A stretch of 11,481 nucleotides of DNA from Candidatus Hodarchaeota archaeon (lineage in GTDB: Archaea > Asgardarchaeota > Heimdallarchaeia > Hodarchaeales > Hodarchaeaceae), in assembly GCA_016840035.1 (NCBI GenBank), contig JAEOTC010000274.1, forward strand, positions 1 through 11,481. Direction: 5' to 3'. The position numbers were made by a program, and so were the translations under genes. The notes beneath the pieces are model-generated. The model was not told the origin of the DNA. It did no database searches and saw only the letters and a list, made by a program, of their open reading frames with translations. Shown here one piece after another: positions 1,571-11,481 of this stretch (its first letter is position 1; every line of letters starts with the position of its first letter).

Positions 1571-2143
1571 ATGAGTCATTTGAAGTCAACTGTTCGCGCT
1601 ATTGGATCCCCAATAAACTTGGTTTTCTGTGGTCTTGATTTCGCAGGTAAAACAGCGATGTACATCCGATTAAAGACGGGGAAATTTGTTGCCGATCTTA
1701 AACCTACACTTGCCTCTACCATGGATTCAATCTCATTGAAGGACGAAGACGGCTTATTAAATGCCACAATAATCGATTTAGGGGGTCAAGAAGCACTACG
1801 TGACCAATGGGAAGAATATTTGGGAAAATCGCATGCAATCATTTACGTGATTGATGCCAATGATTCATCTCGTTTTGAGGAATCGAAAGCAGAGTTCCAG
1901 AAAAGAATTGTACCTTTCATCTCTACAATCCCGTGTATTATTGTATGCAACAAGTTTGATCTATTGAAAGCTCAAAGGAAATCCAAAGATTCTTCCAAGC
2001 TTCCCCAAGAAACCGAAATGACCATAAAAGAAGCGTTGGCAGTCCCTGATGATTCACACTTTGCCATTTTGGTCGCTAGCCAAAAAACAGGTTACGGACT
2101 GCCCAAAGTGACTCGTTTGCTTCGTGAAATGGTAATGAATTAG
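1571..2143 (+). CDS. Arf/Arl-family small GTPase (Asgard Arf-related type)
   Basis: G1 GLDFAGKT (Arf: GLDxAGKT), G2 KPT46, G3 DLGGQ followed by the Arf-typical switch II LRDQWEEY, IYVIDAND..RFEES, G4 NKFD, G5 ASQKTG. Starts 23 nt after the previous stop, with AGGAG at 1552-1556. Confidence 0.92.
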   Translation: MSHLKSTVRAIGSPINLVFCGLDFAGKTAMYIRLKTGKFVADLKPTLASTMDSISLKDEDGLLNATIIDLGGQEALRDQWEEYLGKSHAIIYVIDANDSSRFEESKAEFQKRIVPFISTIPCIIVCNKFDLLKAQRKSKDSSKLPQETEMTIKEALAVPDDSHFAILVASQKTGYGLPKVTRLLREMVMN

Positions 2144-4363: not shown

Positions 4364-5200
4364 TTATGTCCAAGGAGGAAGCTCTTTAAGGATTTTTGGT
4401 GAAATAAATCGCTCAAATACAGGAATTGACAATAAGCCTACCACGATACCTGTGGACAATGCAATCAAATATGCAGCCATATTGTCAGAGGAGAGGGGAA
4501 GAATCCCTAATGTGGAGTTCCAAAATAAATGCCAGATCAAGGAAGGAAGTAAAGAACTAGTCTTATAATAATAGTACCCCCATGGAATTGCTACCAAGAA
4601 AGAAAATAAGCATAATACAAAAGTGTACAGAATTACCTCTGGTAAGGTCATTTCACCTATTACGTACTCCTTTAACGGAGTTGGAAAATGCCAAATTCCG
4701 AAGAAAAAGGCCTGAAGCAGATTTGCCTTCCAAAAATGTTTTTTCGTGACATCCAAAGATAAACGAAGGTATATTCCGCGAAATAGACTCTCTTCCATCA
4801 TCACATTTACAATATTAGTAACAAATGTAAAGTAAAGAAATGAGAGCGTTACTTCAGAAAGATCCCATGCTCCGAAATCCCCAGCAACAAAAGTGTGAAC
4901 GACACGCATAGTGACTATTGAAAGTAGAACAAACCCTAAGCTGAATAAGCAGTTATAAACGAAGTATTCCTTTTTAATACCGATATCCTTCAGCGTTTTC
5001 CCCATAAATATAAGTAGAAATATAATTAAAACAAAAGAAAATGATTTAGAAAGGAGAATATCTCCCCAATCCTCGTCTAAGGTTAACCAGAAGATATCAA
5101 GCATTTTAAAGAAAATGAAAAATACAAACAATCCTATCATTAGAATAAGTGATCGATTTTGATCGTAAAACGATCCCTGTTTTTGTGTTACTTCAGTCAT
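4364..5200 (-). CDS. CPBP-family intramembrane glutamic endopeptidase (Rce1/Abi, type II CAAX protease-like)
   Basis: All three motifs are present in a multi-TM protein: EESLFRG (EExxxR), FGIWH (FxxxH), HLFWN (HxxxN). Start placed at ATG 5200 (MTEVTQ), preceded by GGGGA; the ORF track start at 5251 is an alternative. Confidence 0.92.
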   Translation of the reverse strand: MTEVTQKQGSFYDQNRSLILMIGLFVFFIFFKMLDIFWLTLDEDWGDILLSKSFSFVLIIFLLIFMGKTLKDIGIKKEYFVYNCLFSLGFVLLSIVTMRVVHTFVAGDFGAWDLSEVTLSFLYFTFVTNIVNVMMEESLFRGIYLRLSLDVTKKHFWKANLLQAFFFGIWHFPTPLKEYVIGEMTLPEVILYTFVLCLFSFLVAIPWGYYYYKTSSLLPSLIWHLFWNSTLGILPLSSDNMAAYLIALSTGIVVGLLSIPVFERFISPKILKELPPWT

Positions 5201-5323
5201 TTGAATCCCCATAAAATATTGAAATCGAGAGTTGTAACAAGATTTCATCACTTAATAAGTTAGCTAGTGAGTGATAGAGTTCTCCCCACGACATGATTAT
5301 GAAAAAACTGGAGAATATGCCCT

Positions 5324-6278: not shown

Positions 6279-6674
6279 ATGACCCAGAATCAGAATCAAT
6301 TAGTAAGTAGACGCTATGAAGTTATATCAATCATTAAAATCGTGAAATGGACTTTTATTCCATATTTGTGTATTCAATTCTTACACTTCTTAGGTGCACT
6401 AGGGAAGGATCCAACAAATCTCCTTCAGGCAACTATCACATTCATTGGGATGAGTGGATGGGGATATTTAGTTGTAGGAGGGCCATTCGTACTGATTGGT
6501 ATGGGAGTAAATTATATTGTTAGTCAATCGCTCCTGATGAATATTCCACAAGATACAACCTTGTACGAGGCTGTTACCCAATCCACTATAATGGTTGGTA
6601 ATCTAAAAGTGATCCTTCCTCGGATAGAGGATGATATTGAAATTTTAGATGAGAATGAATTAGAAGAATGGTAA
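6279..6674 (+). CDS. Hypothetical small membrane protein (about 2 TM) with an acidic C-terminal tail ending in Trp
   Basis: Good SD. Hydrophobic segments at aa ~15-41 and ~52-82. Tail EDDIEILDENELEEW. No family recognised. Confidence 0.7.
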   Translation: MTQNQNQLVSRRYEVISIIKIVKWTFIPYLCIQFLHFLGALGKDPTNLLQATITFIGMSGWGYLVVGGPFVLIGMGVNYIVSQSLLMNIPQDTTLYEAVTQSTIMVGNLKVILPRIEDDIEILDENELEEW

Positions 6675-6739: not shown

Positions 6740-8482
6740 TTGTCACTGAAGAAGGGAGCTCTCTCAAAAATAAGAGAGAAAATACGAAAAAAACCAGATT
6801 ATGCCAAATTGATCGGTAAATATCATAAACAAATACAATCACACCCAGAGGATACTGAACCATATTTACTTCGAGCAGAAGTCTATATGACAATAAAAGA
6901 CTATCCTAGTGCCATTAAAGATTATACACAAGTATTAAAATTAAAACCCGACTTGGCAGAGGCTTATTGTAATCGGGGAGGGGCATATGGCAGACTAGGT
7001 GAATTTGAAAAAAGCCTCACCGACTATGCAGAGGCGATACGGTTAGATCCCCAAAATGCAGCTTATTTTCATTTTAGAGCGTATACACAGTATGTTGCAG
7101 GGGATTATCATCCTGCTCTCAGAGATTATTCACAGGCGCTCAGAATAAATCCATTATTAGCGATCAGTCATGCAGGTAGAGGAGACTGTTATTTTGCGAT
7201 GGAAAATTACCCGAAAGCAATCGAAGAATTTTCACAGGCATTAAAGCTGGCTGATCAATATTCCGAAACTAATGACGAAAGAGATCGAAAAGCTCAAGCA
7301 ATATTGATACAAAGAGGATTTGCATATTCACGTACAAAAGATACAGTGAGAGCGAATGACGATTTTTCTCGGGTAATCAAGATTAATCCAAAAAGAATAG
7401 ATGCATGGGGAAGTCGGGGGATGAATCATCTATATCGAGGAGAGTTTGACAAGGCAAAAGCTGATTTCAATAAGTGTATAGAATTAGATCCTACTGATTT
7501 TTTGGGATATTTCAATCGGGGAAATGCTCTGTTCTATAACCACCAATTTCGTGAAGCAATTCCAGATTTTACCAAGACCATAGAATTGAATCCAAATGAT
7601 CAACAGGCGATCCTTAATCGAGGGAACTGTTGGCGAGAATTGGGAGAGAATGAAAAAGCATTAGCAGACTATGCACTGGCGATATCGATCAACGAAGAAT
7701 ATGTCAATGCACATCTTAACCAAGGATCGGTGCTATTACGGATAGAAAAATATGATGAAGCCATCCAGAGTTTTAATAAAGTAATTGAATTGGACTCGGA
7801 GAATAAAGGTGCCTATTCTAACAGATCCATCGCTTACGAAGCTAAAGAAGAATATGAACAGGCATTAGCAGATGCAACAAAAGCTATCAGCTTGGATCCG
7901 AGCTATATGCAAGCTTATCATAATCGGGGAAGCATATACCTAAAGCAAGAAGAATATGCAAAAGCTTATTCCGAATTTTCTAAAGCAATTGAATTATCTG
8001 AAAATCCGGGTGCTTATCATTGGAGAGCGGAAGCCGCAGTCAAACAACAAAAATATGAAAATGCAATTCGGGATTGGACCCTTAGTGGCTTTCGGTATTT
8101 TCGTCATAGAATGTTTGAACAAGCCCAAAAGGCATTCAAACTCGCCTATGAGACAATGGATGAACAGGAGCTCATTACCGAAGAAGGGTTACTCGCAGCA
8201 TTGATGATTTTTACCTCAAGTCGTGATCCCGAAGTTGAAAGCATATTTGCCATATTACAACAGGAGGATTTGGATAAGCTTCACGACTTGATTTTAATTA
8301 AGTATTTAGAGCTAGTAAGAGAATATTTATGGGATCCTACCCAAGTATCAGAATCAGTTGAACGACTAGAAAATCTGAAAGATGAAATAAAAGCGTCTAA
8401 AAACCTTGAAACTAGAAAGAAAGCTTATTATCTGATACTCGGGATCGTGATGCGACAGAAGCTCTTGCAAAAGAGGAAATAA
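6740..8482 (+). CDS. Tetratricopeptide-repeat protein (~12 TPRs plus a C-terminal helical region), soluble
   Basis: 34-aa periodic motif AY.NRG..Y...g.ye.A..Df.kAi.l.P from aa ~39 to ~456 (4 repeats, an ~11-aa insertion, then 8 repeats). TTG start with GAGGT at 6730-6734. No signal peptide or TM seen. Confidence 0.95.
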   Translation: MSLKKGALSKIREKIRKKPDYAKLIGKYHKQIQSHPEDTEPYLLRAEVYMTIKDYPSAIKDYTQVLKLKPDLAEAYCNRGGAYGRLGEFEKSLTDYAEAIRLDPQNAAYFHFRAYTQYVAGDYHPALRDYSQALRINPLLAISHAGRGDCYFAMENYPKAIEEFSQALKLADQYSETNDERDRKAQAILIQRGFAYSRTKDTVRANDDFSRVIKINPKRIDAWGSRGMNHLYRGEFDKAKADFNKCIELDPTDFLGYFNRGNALFYNHQFREAIPDFTKTIELNPNDQQAILNRGNCWRELGENEKALADYALAISINEEYVNAHLNQGSVLLRIEKYDEAIQSFNKVIELDSENKGAYSNRSIAYEAKEEYEQALADATKAISLDPSYMQAYHNRGSIYLKQEEYAKAYSEFSKAIELSENPGAYHWRAEAAVKQQKYENAIRDWTLSGFRYFRHRMFEQAQKAFKLAYETMDEQELITEEGLLAALMIFTSSRDPEVESIFAILQQEDLDKLHDLILIKYLELVREYLWDPTQVSESVERLENLKDEIKASKNLETRKKAYYLILGIVMRQKLLQKRK

Positions 8483-8514: not shown

Positions 8515-10023
8515 ATGACATCTAATAGACCAGAGGAAGAAAAAACCACACAAATCGAATATGATAGTCCAAAAAGTTTTCTAGACAAAAATAATGCAAC
8601 AACACGGTTACTAGTAACCTTAGGTGTTATAGTAATCTACTTTATACTTACCATGATGCGGTTACCAGGAATTGACTTGGGTGAAGGAGATCCACTGTCA
8701 ACTATACGTATTATAGGTGCATCAAGTAATGGATCCCTCGTCGAATTAGGAATACTGCCGATTCTAATAGCTGGATTGACGATGTACATCTTACTGAAAT
8801 TTAATCTTTACGAACTCGATCCAGAAAAGCAAGTCGAACGAACTCGGTACAATAATGTGAGAATGATATTGAGTATCCTAATTACAATCATCCTAGCATT
8901 TGCTCTGACGATTTCAGGAATATATGGAACAGACCTGGATATAATTTCACAATTAGCGATAATCATTCAGCTTACTGTTGTTGGAATCCTGATAGTCTGC
9001 CTAGTGGAGCTCATAAATAGAGGTTGGGGATACGGATCAGGAATTTCACTTATTTTGGCAACTGGAATAGGACTACGCGTTATGAGGGCTTTTCTAGCAC
9101 CAAATAATATCTTAGAAGGGCCCGCAGAGGTTACTTCTGCACGAGGAATAATCTGGGCAGTTCTATATTGGACACTGGAACTAGGACCTGTTAAGGCATT
9201 CAACTATTTATTCTTCCGCTATAGCATCGATCCAACTCATAATTTAAATTTACCGTCATTATCACTATTTTCTGTCTATTTAGCAGGTATAGGTTTCCTT
9301 GTAATTGTAATAATGGAGCTTCTAATATCAAGAAAGCGTAACCAAGGACATACACATCCAAAATTAGAAAAGTTGACATCACCTGTCATACCCATTGTTT
9401 TAATAACAACGACATTGGCAATAGTCAGGTTCTTCAGCCTTTTCATCTGGAATATGAGTGGAAGAGACGGATCTTCATCAATATTAACATGGATATTGGG
9501 TGATTATAGATTAGAACTGACAACTGAACAGTATGTTCCAATCGGAGGATTAGCGTATTTTACGACTCCACTTTCAACATTCATGGCTGATCTGGCTCTT
9601 GATCCAATAGCAGCAATTTCACATGGAGTCATATATGCAGCAGTCTTTTTTGGACTGTACATGATGTTTAGTAGGATAAATTTCTGGATAGCCAATAAGA
9701 ATGGAGGTGTTTCAGGTATACAAAAACTGGGTACCCAGTGGCTTCTAATTGGGATAACCTGCGTGATACTGGATATGTTTAGTGTTCTTGGGGTTGGTTT
9801 GGGAATAATCATCTTCACATTGATAATTATGGACTATTATCACCTGTTTACCAGTGACCACTCCCCTGAGTTCATAAGATTCGATCTAGCCCAGTTAGAT
9901 AAGGAAAAAACTGACCGTTCACAGAATATAAGAATTTCTGGAGGCCTTTTCTGGGTAATCCTAGTTTTATTTGAGGTTACATTATTTATCGTCAGCGTGT
10001 TCTTCCAAATATTCTTTAATTAG
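8515..10023 (+). CDS. secY: Divergent SecY/Sec61alpha paralog with truncated cytosolic loops and an extra C-terminal TM helix
   Basis: Plug/TM2 DPLSTIRIIGASSNGSLVELGILPILIAG (Sec61alpha: [29 protein letters not shown]), TM4-5 IQL...LVELINRGWGYGSGISLILATG ([20 protein letters not shown]), TM7 IPIVL, GGLAYF..P...DPI before TM8, TM10 LGVGLGIII...IMDYY. Not flanked by ribosomal-protein genes or adk. Confidence 0.9.
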   Translation: MTSNRPEEEKTTQIEYDSPKSFLDKNNATTRLLVTLGVIVIYFILTMMRLPGIDLGEGDPLSTIRIIGASSNGSLVELGILPILIAGLTMYILLKFNLYELDPEKQVERTRYNNVRMILSILITIILAFALTISGIYGTDLDIISQLAIIIQLTVVGILIVCLVELINRGWGYGSGISLILATGIGLRVMRAFLAPNNILEGPAEVTSARGIIWAVLYWTLELGPVKAFNYLFFRYSIDPTHNLNLPSLSLFSVYLAGIGFLVIVIMELLISRKRNQGHTHPKLEKLTSPVIPIVLITTTLAIVRFFSLFIWNMSGRDGSSSILTWILGDYRLELTTEQYVPIGGLAYFTTPLSTFMADLALDPIAAISHGVIYAAVFFGLYMMFSRINFWIANKNGGVSGIQKLGTQWLLIGITCVILDMFSVLGVGLGIIIFTLIIMDYYHLFTSDHSPEFIRFDLAQLDKEKTDRSQNIRISGGLFWVILVLFEVTLFIVSVFFQIFFN

Positions 10024-11481
10024 TTTCCCTTCTGTAGAAATGTGTGAAGAGAAAAAATAAGAGAATTGTGAATGAGAAAGAAAGAGTAGGAGACTGCTGG
10101 GAAGTAGTGCTGCTATGAGTTGTAGTGGAAGAAAACGACGAATTTAGTGGTATAGTAGGTAAAGATGTCGTAAGAAATGAAGAATTCATCAAAAAAGTAG
10201 TAAAAGAATATGCGGGTATGTGTAGAGAGACATCGGTGGTAGGAAAAGGACTAATGAGACTTTCTATGCCGTTATAAACAGTCACAATATTATCAATACT
10301 TGGGATCTCACACGCATCTACACCAGACTGAACGAGGAGATTGGAAAAATTGCCACTCCACACAAGCGTAGAATCACCACGATTAGCAAATAAAATTGCG
10401 AGATCACCCCGAGGACCTCGATATCCCTGAATGACACCCTGGGGAACATTGAGACCAGGAAGAGAAATCATTGGACAATCAGTCCATAGGAAAGGAAACA
10501 ACAAATCCCCATCTCGGAAGAATTGATAATCATCTAATTTACGAGTTAAATAAGCAGAAATTAATGCTTCATAGGATTTGGTAGAAATCGACAAACGGGA
10601 AGGAGAAATTAGAGTTGCAGCACCAGGAAAATAGCCATCCTTAAGACTTTCTGACAAACCCCAGAAAAAAAGGGGAAAATTAACTGGATTAATATCAGGA
10701 CGTCCACTAGTCAACAGATAGGGATGATAAACAAAACTAAAGAGGGGGATACTCTTCCCTGTGGGAAACCAGTTATTACGTTCATAGCTAGTATGATAAC
10801 TCCAAAATAGATCAATAGTACTCAGATAAGTTTCAACAACATTTTCTGAAGCTAATCCCGCATCGGGATTGAAGGTATGCATGGCATCCCGAGTTCGAGT
10901 TAAAAGCTGGTTTTCTGCTATTTGCCACCAGCTACCTGAGCCAGGGGGGTGAGAGGGTACATCACGATAATCAAACATAGGTGGGGCCACACTAATCTGA
11001 TCTAAATATAGAAGATCAGCTTGAAAATCACGGACAGCCGTTACAGAATAATTAAGAACGATTTCCTGCCACCAATCAGAAGAAGGATCCGCTACAGCGC
11101 CTGTAAGATAGGGAGTATAGGTTTCAGTATAAATTGAATCTCGATACCCTGTAAGAAATTCCTGATTTTGCGTAAATGTATCAGTCGAGACATCCACCAA
11201 TCGTCCGTTAAAATACAACATAACTTTAGCAGAGGCAGAATGGGCATCATTAATCCCTTCAACTAGCTTAACATTGCCGTCACGGGCGGGATAATAATCA
11301 GGATATCCACGATCAAAACCATCACGCCCCCATCCCCACCACTCAAGTAAAAAGTCGGAAGATAATCCTTTCTGAGTGAGATGGGTTGGAAACATTCCCA
11401 TATTATCAACGGTTTCCCCTTCGAGGACAATATTTCCCGTATCATGGTCAGTGACATACGATGATCCTTTCCAGACGTAAT
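10016..11481 (-). CDS. Putative glycoside hydrolase (DUF6259-like TIM barrel) with S/T-rich linker and C-terminal membrane anchor; 5'-partial
   Basis: Motifs WWGW...YPDYYP, MLYFNGRL, DP...WQ, ADLLYLDQIS, HPPG.G.WW, SENVVETY and PLFSFVYH resemble DUF6259/GH36-like barrels. The end is SSTTTHSSTTSQQSPTLSFSFTILLFFLFTHFYRRETN. The frame stays open from 11401 to the window edge (YVWKGSSYVTDHDTGNIVLEGETVDN-MGMF), so the real start is outside. Overlaps the secY-like 3' end by 8 nt. Confidence 0.7.
   Translation of the reverse strand, partial: YVWKGSSYVTDHDTGNIVLEGETVDNMGMFPTHLTQKGLSSDFLLEWWGWGRDGFDRGYPDYYPARDGNVKLVEGINDAHSASAKVMLYFNGRLVDVSTDTFTQNQEFLTGYRDSIYTETYTPYLTGAVADPSSDWWQEIVLNYSVTAVRDFQADLLYLDQISVAPPMFDYRDVPSHPPGSGSWWQIAENQLLTRTRDAMHTFNPDAGLASENVVETYLSTIDLFWSYHTSYERNNWFPTGKSIPLFSFVYHPYLLTSGRPDINPVNFPLFFWGLSESLKDGYFPGAATLISPSRLSISTKSYEALISAYLTRKLDDYQFFRDGDLLFPFLWTDCPMISLPGLNVPQGVIQGYRGPRGDLAILFANRGDSTLVWSGNFSNLLVQSGVDACEIPSIDNIVTVYNGIESLISPFPTTDVSLHIPAYSFTTFLMNSSFLTTSLPTIPLNSSFSSTTTHSSTTSQQSPTLSFSFTILLFFLFTHFYRRETN

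Follow-up and report, generated by a model that had tools for sequence, protein, structure and literature searches.

SecY/Sec61alpha and SecE/Sec61gamma are universal and, to our knowledge, have always been described as separate polypeptides. In the SecYE-beta and Sec61 alpha-gamma-beta heterotrimers (M. jannaschii 1RHZ/1RH5; mammalian Sec61), the gamma-type subunit is a separate protein of 60-70 aa. A second, diverged SecY or Sec61alpha is found in the bacterial SecA2-SecY2 system and in the yeast Ssh1 complex. In both systems, the small subunits, which can be dedicated or shared, are proteins in their own right. SecA2 drives SecY2, and Ssh1 has retained ribosome binding. SecA2 is, as far as we know, absent from archaea.

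We analyzed a SecY paralog with an additional C-terminal helix in a Hodarchaeales genome. The window, i.e. the whole stretch of DNA that was analyzed, comprises 11,481 nucleotides (contig JAEOTC010000274.1 of assembly GCA_016840035.1). The relevant features are:

8515..10023, plus strand: divergent, fast-evolving SecY paralog, 502 aa (Pfam SecY, AlphaFold2/Foldseek, alignment with the canonical copy, tree)
9802..9852, plus strand: TM10, residues 430-446, final helix of the canonical SecY fold (AlphaFold2 helix; hhalign)
9853..9939, plus strand: polar cytosolic linker, residues 447-475 (AlphaFold2: mostly coil, pLDDT about 58-79)
9868..9885, plus strand: family-specific conserved motif EF[VI]RFD, residues 452-457, here EFIRFD (alignment)
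9940..10020, plus strand: TM11, residues 476-502, TM helix probably derived from SecE/Sec61gamma, degenerate in the window copy (AlphaFold2, family alignment)
10021-10023, plus strand: stop codon

Like the heterotrimeric channels, the paralog has a 10-TM SecY fold with a plug, and its family has a SecE/Sec61gamma-type helix that appears homologous to the SecE of the same lineage. Unlike in the heterotrimers, this helix is covalently attached to the C-terminus of the alpha subunit and is not preceded by a recognizable amphipathic helix or K-x-P hinge, the ribosome-docking loops 6/7 and 8/9 are shortened, and the gene is located outside any ribosomal-protein cluster. With SecY2 and Ssh1, the paralog shares the state of a diverged second SecY beside a housekeeping channel, the known link being the SecY family, but it differs from both in carrying its small-subunit helix in fused form.

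The assignment of the 502-aa ORF to SecY is clear. It matched the Pfam SecY profile with 69.8 bits (cut-off 32.2; profile positions 1-222 of 306), and the Plug domain was found with E=6e-4. The AlphaFold2 model (mean pLDDT 88.5, pTM 0.90) had Sec61alpha/SecY chains as its top structural matches in a Foldseek search of the PDB, in which only the SecY chain was aligned (Sec61alpha 7TM3: E=5e-17, TM-score 0.70-0.75). The ORF is therefore a SecY by both its profile match and its 10-TM fold with plug. Its 10 canonical TM helices are followed by the C-terminal tail, and loops 6/7 and 8/9 are shortened. Both docking loops were below normal length: in all 11-TM members, loop 6/7 is short by about 6 aa and loop 8/9 by about 28 aa relative to the aligned canonical copy of the genome. 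Genes for a TPR protein and a small membrane protein are located upstream of the paralog, and a DUF6259 protein is also encoded nearby.

The tail proper is encoded by positions 9850-10023 on the plus strand, which translate into 57 residues (446-502 of the ORF) and the stop codon. The first-pass annotation had described a hydrophobic helix beyond a polar linker after TM10; the peptide matched exactly, and AlphaFold2 predicted a helix of 26 residues (476-501) with a pLDDT of about 84-88. Values of about 85 for TM11 match the expectation for a packed helix. The mean Kyte-Doolittle hydropathy is -1.1 for the linker, which contains five lysine or arginine residues, and +2.1 for the helix. The canonical SecY of the genome stops about 22 residues past TM10 and has no 11th helix. 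Within the linker, conservation is uneven. The stretch around EF[VI]RFD (region 450-460, mean pairwise identity 0.51) is better conserved than TM11 itself (0.42, equal to the value for the channel's C-terminal half), and F456 and D457 are invariant across nine members, whereas residues 461-475 are poorly conserved (0.17). In hhalign, TM10 and the following ~10 residues paired with TM10 and the C-terminal tail in canonical SecY (probability 82%). We also considered EF[VI]RFD as a leftover of the canonical SecY C-tail (N-P-A-L-R-G-F), but this is unsupported, since the hhalign match halts ~10 residues past TM10. By hhalign, the linker resembled neither Sec-beta nor the final part of the canonical SecY tail. 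Ungapped profile sliding of the linker along N-terminal SecE sequence was negative (score -26, rank 27 of 61 offsets), and neither the SecE amphipathic helix nor the K-x-P-x-x-x-E hinge was recognizable before TM11.

The tail is carried by 12 family members from Hodarchaeales/Kariarchaeaceae relatives in independent assemblies, so that the extension, whose presence in orthologs had been proposed as a check, is not a chance ORF tail. The source genome holds three 11-TM copies, the window gene and two more. In our tree, the 11-TM family is monophyletic (SH-aLRT 100) and sister (99) to a clade of tail-less paralogs, both being nested among the canonical SecY proteins of the same family. These tail-less Hodarchaeales proteins (L046, L047, L136/P0167+P0168) are the closest relatives of the 11-TM clade in the tree and, like it, are fast-evolving accessory SecY proteins with an own SecE-type partner ending in ...ILGR. 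Their partner, however, is encoded by a separate gene of ~66 aa located immediately upstream at three loci (L046, L047, L136/P0168), with amphipathic helix and hinge intact, whereas in the window paralog the SecE-type partner is fused C-terminally and the helix alone is left. No adjacent secE-like gene was found at the loci of the fused form (window, L003, L007, L008, L036). Stand-alone secE and sec61beta genes are still present in the source genome.

To what is the 11th helix related? The SecE of the genome (L114:344-553:+) scored only 22.0 bits with the Pfam SecE profile (cut-off 22.7). A profile of the lineage's SecE proteins matched exclusively SecE/Sec61gamma chains in the PDB (E=1e-7; 1RH5_B, 2WWB_B and others), which identifies L114:344-553:+ as a genuine SecE at the level of profile comparison. 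Since a genuine SecE stays below its cut-off, the Pfam profile is weak for this lineage. The family consensus of the 11-TM tails ends in RFI[IV]FVILGRE, as does the SecE of the genome. In BLASTP, this SecE matched the G054 family member with 14 of 21 identical residues (E=1e-6), the alignment extending to the last residue of both proteins, and in a six-frame search of the source genome its top non-self match lay at the C-terminal end of the sister copy (contig C247). Aligned as profiles with hhalign, the tails matched the SecE of the genus with a probability of 82% (E=1.1e-5; E=6e-5 after removal of the four closest SecE sequences), a score reached by none of 200 block shuffles. When the SecE profile was aligned with the profile of the full-length paralogs, the sole match paired the C-terminal 22 columns of the two profiles (E=6e-4). 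An ungapped SecE scan of the 1.96 million 22-mers of the genome gave scores of 101 for SecE itself, 66 for the C247 tail and 40 for the next best hit; the tails from G054 and G049 scored 71. Among 19,632 open frames, an ILGR[ED] ending occurs in just two, SecE and the C247 paralog. The first-pass annotation had named SecE as a second profile for comparison, and it is SecE that the family helix matches, by BLASTP, hhalign and the ungapped scan. On these alignments, the TM11 of the family is homologous to the helix and C-terminus of the lineage's own SecE.

The similarity is short and not seen by every method. Detectable homology spans only ~22 residues of the hydrophobic helix, and the hhalign probability of the SecE match ranged from 29 to 82% and never exceeded 95%. 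The Pfam SecE profile (PF00584) gave no match to the tails at E<=10, and lineage SecE HMMs (hmmsearch --max on all ORFs of the paralog loci) found the separate secE' genes and no tail at E<=10. The fused tails are thus seen by BLASTP, hhalign and the ungapped scan and missed by hmmsearch. A SecE-profile match within a G051 frame of 581 aa was a false lead, as this frame encodes a membrane-anchored beta-helix repeat protein.

We consider it likely that the tail is a fusion product, in which an accessory SecY paralog carries a SecE/Sec61gamma TM helix at its cytosolic C-terminus, connected by a linker of ~30 residues. For the window copy itself, the evidence is indirect. BLASTP of SecE gave nothing on its own tail, and in the ungapped scan it scored 9, a value that 10,855 background windows of the genome reached as well. 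Since the window tail is the most degenerate of the family, it is tied to SecE only through the family alignment, in which it aligns almost without gaps (one gap of two residues in one member).

This degeneracy raises the question of whether the SecE-derived helix of the window copy is decaying and no longer acts as a clamp, the gene being a drifting or sub-functionalized duplicate among three 11-TM copies. The mean identity of its TM11 to the other TM11s is only 0.19, compared to 0.42 within the family, although its core is as well conserved as that of other members (0.47 versus 0.48), and the genome contains two other 11-TM copies. The L-G-L motif has Glu instead of its Gly, the Arg has become Ser, and the final three residues are gone. 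With the Gly, Arg and GRE hallmarks lost, the helix of the window copy may be under relaxed or altered constraint. But the reading frame is intact, and no frameshifted SecE-like end is hidden in the other frames at 9900-10090. Moreover, the segment is still strongly hydrophobic and helical, with a pLDDT of about 85, and the upstream motif EFIRFD is fully conserved. Decay of the clamp is a minor possibility for this copy.

The helix could also be an unrelated lineage-specific add-on, acquired for example by downstream read-through, that came to resemble SecE by convergence on the same groove or by gene conversion from secE. The restriction of the match to ~22 residues, its invisibility to HMMER and the lack of a SecE signal in the linker are in line with such an origin, and the closer resemblance of the tails to the SecE of their own sub-lineage than to other SecE proteins of the genus (identity 0.33 versus 0.18) would also be explicable by gene conversion or co-evolution. 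Yet the match includes the non-membrane C-terminal G-R-E-L in a register that is exact to the stop codon, no other end like it exists in the six-frame proteome, and the sister clade is accompanied by separate secE' genes. Furthermore, P0025, a protein from a Promethearchaeota MAG (NCBI MFX1256171.1), shows that fusion of a whole SecE onto the C-terminus of SecY does happen: its tail matched SecE with a probability of 96.6% (hhalign, E=5e-10), including the K-x-P...E hinge. Taken together, we regard an add-on origin as unlikely. While P0025 resembles the 11-TM proteins in being a natural C-terminal SecY-SecE fusion, it branches outside their clade, has kept the SecE hinge and matches a nearly complete SecY profile (132 bits, 1-303/306), and it looks like a separate fusion event. 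A weak SecE-like signal (hhalign, probability 27%) was also obtained for the tail of P0063, which sits on a very long branch in the tree and is therefore not assigned.

The first-pass annotation had tentatively interpreted the tail as a fused Sec61beta, which would be located at the beta site and result in a single-chain alpha-beta channel. Its idea of a small translocon subunit fused to the cytosolic C-terminus of SecY stands, but the identity of this subunit does not, since the helix matches SecE far better and shows no profile similarity to Sec61beta. In topology, the beta subunit would fit: like Sec61beta/Sec-beta (PF03911), the tail has a single, tail-anchor-like C-terminal helix with its N-terminal side in the cytosol, where the C-terminus of SecY is also located, and would be a small accessory element of the channel. 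By eye, EFIRF resembles GLIRF of the genome's own beta subunit. In contrast to Sec-beta, however, the tail lacks both G-A-G-L-x-R and P-G-x-K-x-x-P. The positions of G-A-G-L-x-R-F/Y ... P-G-x-K-x-x-P are invariant in 30 Asgard beta sequences, and all that the tail holds of this cytosolic motif is an I-R-F triplet, 22 residues away from the helix; it has neither P-G-x-K nor the Pro, in agreement with the earlier remark that the conserved beta Pro is absent. The Pfam Sec61_beta profile did not match any of six tails at E<=10. A six-frame search of the genome with PF03911 at E<=1 missed the tail, its two matches being the stand-alone beta gene (40.7 bits) and an unrelated frame; separate beta genes are present in the source and in related genomes. 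Comparison of the tails with 31 Asgard Sec-beta sequences by hhalign gave, as the sole local match, the start of the helix with the beta K-I-G-P region (probability 0.2%, E 0.36), and block-shuffled tails equaled or beat the real tail in 166 of 200 cases. The beta profile and the profile of the full-length paralog aligned with a probability of 0.14%. As no Sec61beta signal was found, the beta-like matches FIRF and IRIS pointed out in the earlier reading are at chance level. A complex prediction for the full-length paralog with the stand-alone Sec-beta (score 0.01) is evidence neither way. Judged from all these comparisons, the tail is unrelated to Sec61beta, and a single-chain alpha-beta channel is very improbable. 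The probability of an assembly or gene-calling artefact, i.e. a frameshift or chimeric contig that fused secY to a small downstream gene, is negligible: the MAG is fragmented into 293 contigs (completeness 87%, contamination 4%), but the architecture recurs in NCBI, JGI, ENA and Logan assemblies, always as a single frame without stops, and at three loci of the source genome.

According to the SecE fusion model, an accessory SecY paralog of the Hodarchaeales type would have gained the SecE/Sec61gamma helix C-terminally through the linker of ~30 residues. The order of the genes in the sister clade, with secE' upstream of secY', by itself gives no C-terminal fusion. TM11 would be oriented N-in/C-out like SecE, which is compatible with the cytosolic C-terminus of SecY, and would lie across the back of the channel, at the site where SecE normally clamps the two halves. 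The paralog could thus form a self-clamped single-chain alpha-gamma unit with a fixed 1:1 stoichiometry, so that it and the housekeeping SecY would not compete for SecE. Given its two shortened ribosome-docking loops, the channel probably does not need a docked ribosome to function. More tentatively, the 11-TM proteins might be the central component of an accessory translocon in the Hodarchaeales that operates independently of ribosomes, with a SecE clamp in cis, the docking loops shed, and dedicated post-translational substrates; this remains speculative. If true, archaea would have an equivalent of SecY2 or of the post-translational Sec complex of eukaryotes, and this in the lineage closest to eukaryotes. 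The upstream TPR protein, the small membrane protein or the DUF6259 neighbor may be locus-specific helpers of such a channel.

No published report of a natural SecY-SecE fusion was found in full-text searches of the literature, and the 11-TM paralog family would represent a natural single-chain alpha-gamma channel that has apparently not been reported before. Besides correcting the subunit assignment of the tail from beta to gamma, the fusion would provide a confirmation, in the style of a Rosetta stone, that these paralogs require their own gamma-type clamp. For structural studies and reconstitution of Asgard translocons, a single-chain alpha-gamma channel would also offer a simple construct. 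With up to three copies per genome, the 11-TM paralogs form a small family of accessory Sec channels that is expanding in the Hodarchaeales. Since this is the archaeal group placed closest to eukaryotes, the family bears on how translocon diversity arose there. In the databases, the 11-TM proteins are annotated as 'hypothetical' or 'SEC61 subunit alpha'.

The window encodes a divergent SecY/Sec61alpha homologue (P0001), which matches the Pfam SecY profile with 69.8 bits, over profile positions 1-222 of 306 only, and gives a weak match to the Pfam plug domain. The AlphaFold2 model of this protein, built from an 80-sequence alignment (mean pLDDT 88.5, pTM 0.90), retrieved only Sec61alpha/SecY chains in Foldseek (best match 7TM3, E=5e-17). 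The first-pass annotation had described an extra C-terminal helix at 9850-10023. Translation of this region gives exactly the 57 residues quoted, and AlphaFold2 models the helix (TM11). Therefore, the observation is correct at this position.

Window 8515-10023, + strand: SecY paralog P0001, 502 aa
P0001 residues 430-446: TM10, a helix in the AlphaFold2 model
P0001 residues 447-475: linker, mostly coiled in the AlphaFold2 model (pLDDT about 58-79)
P0001 residues 476-501: extra helix TM11 (pLDDT about 84-88)

We then asked how widely the tail occurs. Relatives of P0001 in the databases come from MAGs of Hodarchaeales, Kariarchaeaceae and 'Heimdallarchaeota B3' and are named hypothetical proteins or SEC61 alpha. 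The extension characterises this family: twelve sequences share the tail and align nearly without gaps (one 2-residue gap, in family member P0005). Of the 83 species-level genomes in the class, just three (G000, G049, G054) carry it, and searching 1.84 billion representative proteins with a profile added only a few further clusters (P0011, P0012, the fragment P0019 and perhaps P0063). Within the family, the motif EF[VI]RFD (residues 452-457) has an identity of 0.51, with F456 and D457 invariant, the spacer is variable (0.17), and TM11 (0.42) equals the C-terminal half of the channel. Relative to canonical SecY, loop 6/7 is ~6 and loop 8/9 ~28 residues shorter in all 11-TM members. A maximum-likelihood tree unites these proteins in a single clade (SH-aLRT 100). 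Its sister (99) is another set of paralogs, which evolve fast and lack the tail, and both groups lie inside the canonical SecY radiation of the same archaeal family.

The first-pass annotation had read the tail as a fused Sec61beta, but all tests of this assignment were negative. Pfam Sec61_beta gave no match at E<=10 on six tails (the genuine beta reaches 41 bits), and a six-frame PF03911 search of the genome left the tail untouched at E<=1. Aligned by hhalign with 31 Asgard beta sequences, the tail alignment reached a probability of 0.2% (E 0.36) over 10 columns, the very ones picked out before, and shuffled tails equalled or beat the real one in 166 of 200 cases (linker and helix blocks shuffled separately). 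The beta profile matched the full-length paralog profile with a probability of 0.14%. Moreover, the invariant positions of beta (G-A-G-L-x-R, P-G-x-K-x-x-P) are missing from the tail, and every genome with an 11-TM protein has exactly one free beta gene.

We also compared the tails with SecE sequences gathered from the class. The SecE of this genome ends in ...RFIIFVILGREL, the family tails in ...RF[IV].F[VT]ILGRE plus one residue. BLASTP of SecE against the G054 family member gave 14/21 identities (E=1e-6), reaching the last residue of both proteins, and in a six-frame search of the genome the best non-self match of SecE was the C-terminus of the paralog on contig C247. By hhalign, the tails matched SecE of the genus with a probability of 82% (E=1.1e-5; still 6e-5 without the four closest SecE sequences), a score attained by 0 of 200 shuffles. 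The sole match between the SecE profile and the full-length paralog profile comprised the final 22 columns of both (E=6e-4). HMMER-based searches did not detect any similarity between tail and SecE. In an ungapped scan of all 1.96 million 22-residue windows from the genome's open frames that are 50 aa or longer, the last 22 residues of SecE scored 101 against themselves. The C247 tail came next with 66, and no other window exceeded 40; the G054 and G049 tails scored 71. Of 19,632 open frames, just two end in ILGR[ED], namely those of SecE and the C247 paralog. These sequence comparisons indicate that TM11 of the 11-TM family derives from SecE. Thus, a small subunit is indeed fused to SecY, but it is not beta. 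The linker lacks a SecE signal, and EF[VI]RFD could not be traced to beta, the N-terminus of SecE or the canonical SecY tail. Conserved open frames of ~310 aa in another family of the class (f4) also contain a match to the SecE profile, at positions 12-42 and with up to 26.6 bits, above the cut-off (e.g. G003:C39:6050-6142 and G019:C194:10572-10664); these may represent another protein with a SecE-like helix.

The tail of the window copy is the most derived of the family: Glu stands in place of the Gly in the L-G-L motif, Ser in place of the Arg, and the last three residues are absent. Its TM11 has an identity of 0.19 to the others, and on its own the tail shows no significant similarity to SecE (score 9). 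Alternative reading frames offered no better C-terminal end. Its assignment to SecE is based on the family alignment and on the 56% overall identity of P0001 to P0002, a member with a typical tail.

The assembly spans 4.3 Mb in 293 contigs, is 87% complete and contains several SecY genes. Three divergent copies, including that of the window, all carry the extension. In the PDB, the lineage profile of the genome's SecE retrieved no chains other than those of SecE/Sec61gamma (E about 1e-7).

Contig C71: canonical SecY, 216 bits, 502 aa, without extension
L003:775-2295, - strand: 11-TM SecY copy on C247
L036:901-2388, + strand: 11-TM SecY copy on C289, more distant
L004:1495-1671, - strand: stand-alone Sec61beta, one copy, 40.7 bits
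L114:344-553, + strand: SecE/Sec61gamma, one copy

Other genomes of the same family (G062, G057, G065, G066 and G067; loci L039, L040, L041, L019 and L022) have two near-canonical SecY copies whose loops are intact and whose C-terminus is normal, so SecY duplication is common in this group beyond the 11-TM proteins.

Directly upstream of the tail-less sister paralogs, at a distance of 50-130 nt, lies a separate full-length SecE-like gene (~66 aa), which forms a secE'-secY' accessory pair with the paralog. These SecE-like genes keep the amphipathic helix, the hinge and the ...ILGR ending.

L046:2294-2491, - strand: secE-like gene of a sister paralog
L047:2231-2428, - strand: secE-like gene of a sister paralog
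L136:2745-2948, + strand: secE-like gene of a sister paralog (P0168)

At a fourth sister locus, the same upstream place is occupied by a gene for 66 aa, known by place and length only. The G061 copy of the tail-less paralog contains an in-frame TAG. No separate SecE-like gene was found at the 11-TM loci (the window, L003, L007, L008 and L036). The dedicated gamma-type partner is therefore encoded either next to the SecY gene or within it, as would be expected if the fused helix takes over the role of this partner.

A further case is P0025, the SecY of a Promethearchaeota MAG, which is placed elsewhere in the tree, outside the 11-TM clade.

L133:712-2292, + strand: P0025, 526 aa, on a contig of only 3.5 kb

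Its C-terminal tail aligns with SecE across 42 columns, among them those of the K-x-P...E hinge (hhalign probability 96.6%, E=5e-10), and the protein looks like an independent SecY-SecE fusion. C-terminal fusion of the two has therefore probably happened more than once. Full-text literature searches returned no account of a natural SecY-SecE fusion, nor of the Asgard SecY paralogs described here. Such a fusion modifies a known machine and does not amount to a new type of system.

In SecYE-beta/Sec61 structures, the N-terminus of SecE/Sec61gamma lies in the cytosol. The subunit spans the membrane at an oblique angle on the hinge side of SecY and keeps the two five-helix halves of the channel together. 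Since the C-terminus of SecY is cytosolic as well, the 30-residue linker would let the fused helix insert N-in/C-out and reach this position. The paralog would then be self-clamped, with an obligatory 1:1 stoichiometry and no need for the housekeeping SecE pool. Because both ribosome-docking loops are shortened, the channel most likely works without a docked ribosome.

The neighbours of the 11-TM genes are candidate partners, though not conserved across the family. In the window, the SecY paralog is preceded by two genes of the same orientation, and the three are separated by 65 and 32 nt; this arrangement was not seen at the P0002 and P0003 loci. A DUF6259 gene also lies beside P0002, the closest relative.

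Window 6279-6674, + strand: 131-aa small hydrophobic membrane protein, no Pfam family
Window 6740-8482, + strand: 580-aa protein with many TPR repeats
Window 10016-11401, - strand: DUF6259 protein, convergent with the SecY paralog and overlapping its last 8 nt
L135:3553-5565, - strand: DUF6259 protein beside P0002, upstream and divergent

An ABC-type ATPase gene follows the C247 copy (L003:2-730, - strand) and another the sister paralog P0013; an ABC ATPase and an FtsX-type permease lie near P0003, with an HTH regulator upstream. The window also encodes an Arf-family small GTPase, one of the eukaryote-like signature proteins that typify Asgard genomes, and a putative CAAX endopeptidase.

Window 1571-2143, + strand: Arf-family small GTPase (Pfam Arf, 96.6 bits)
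Window 4364-5251, - strand: Rce1-like CAAX prenyl endopeptidase family membrane protein (57.9 bits)
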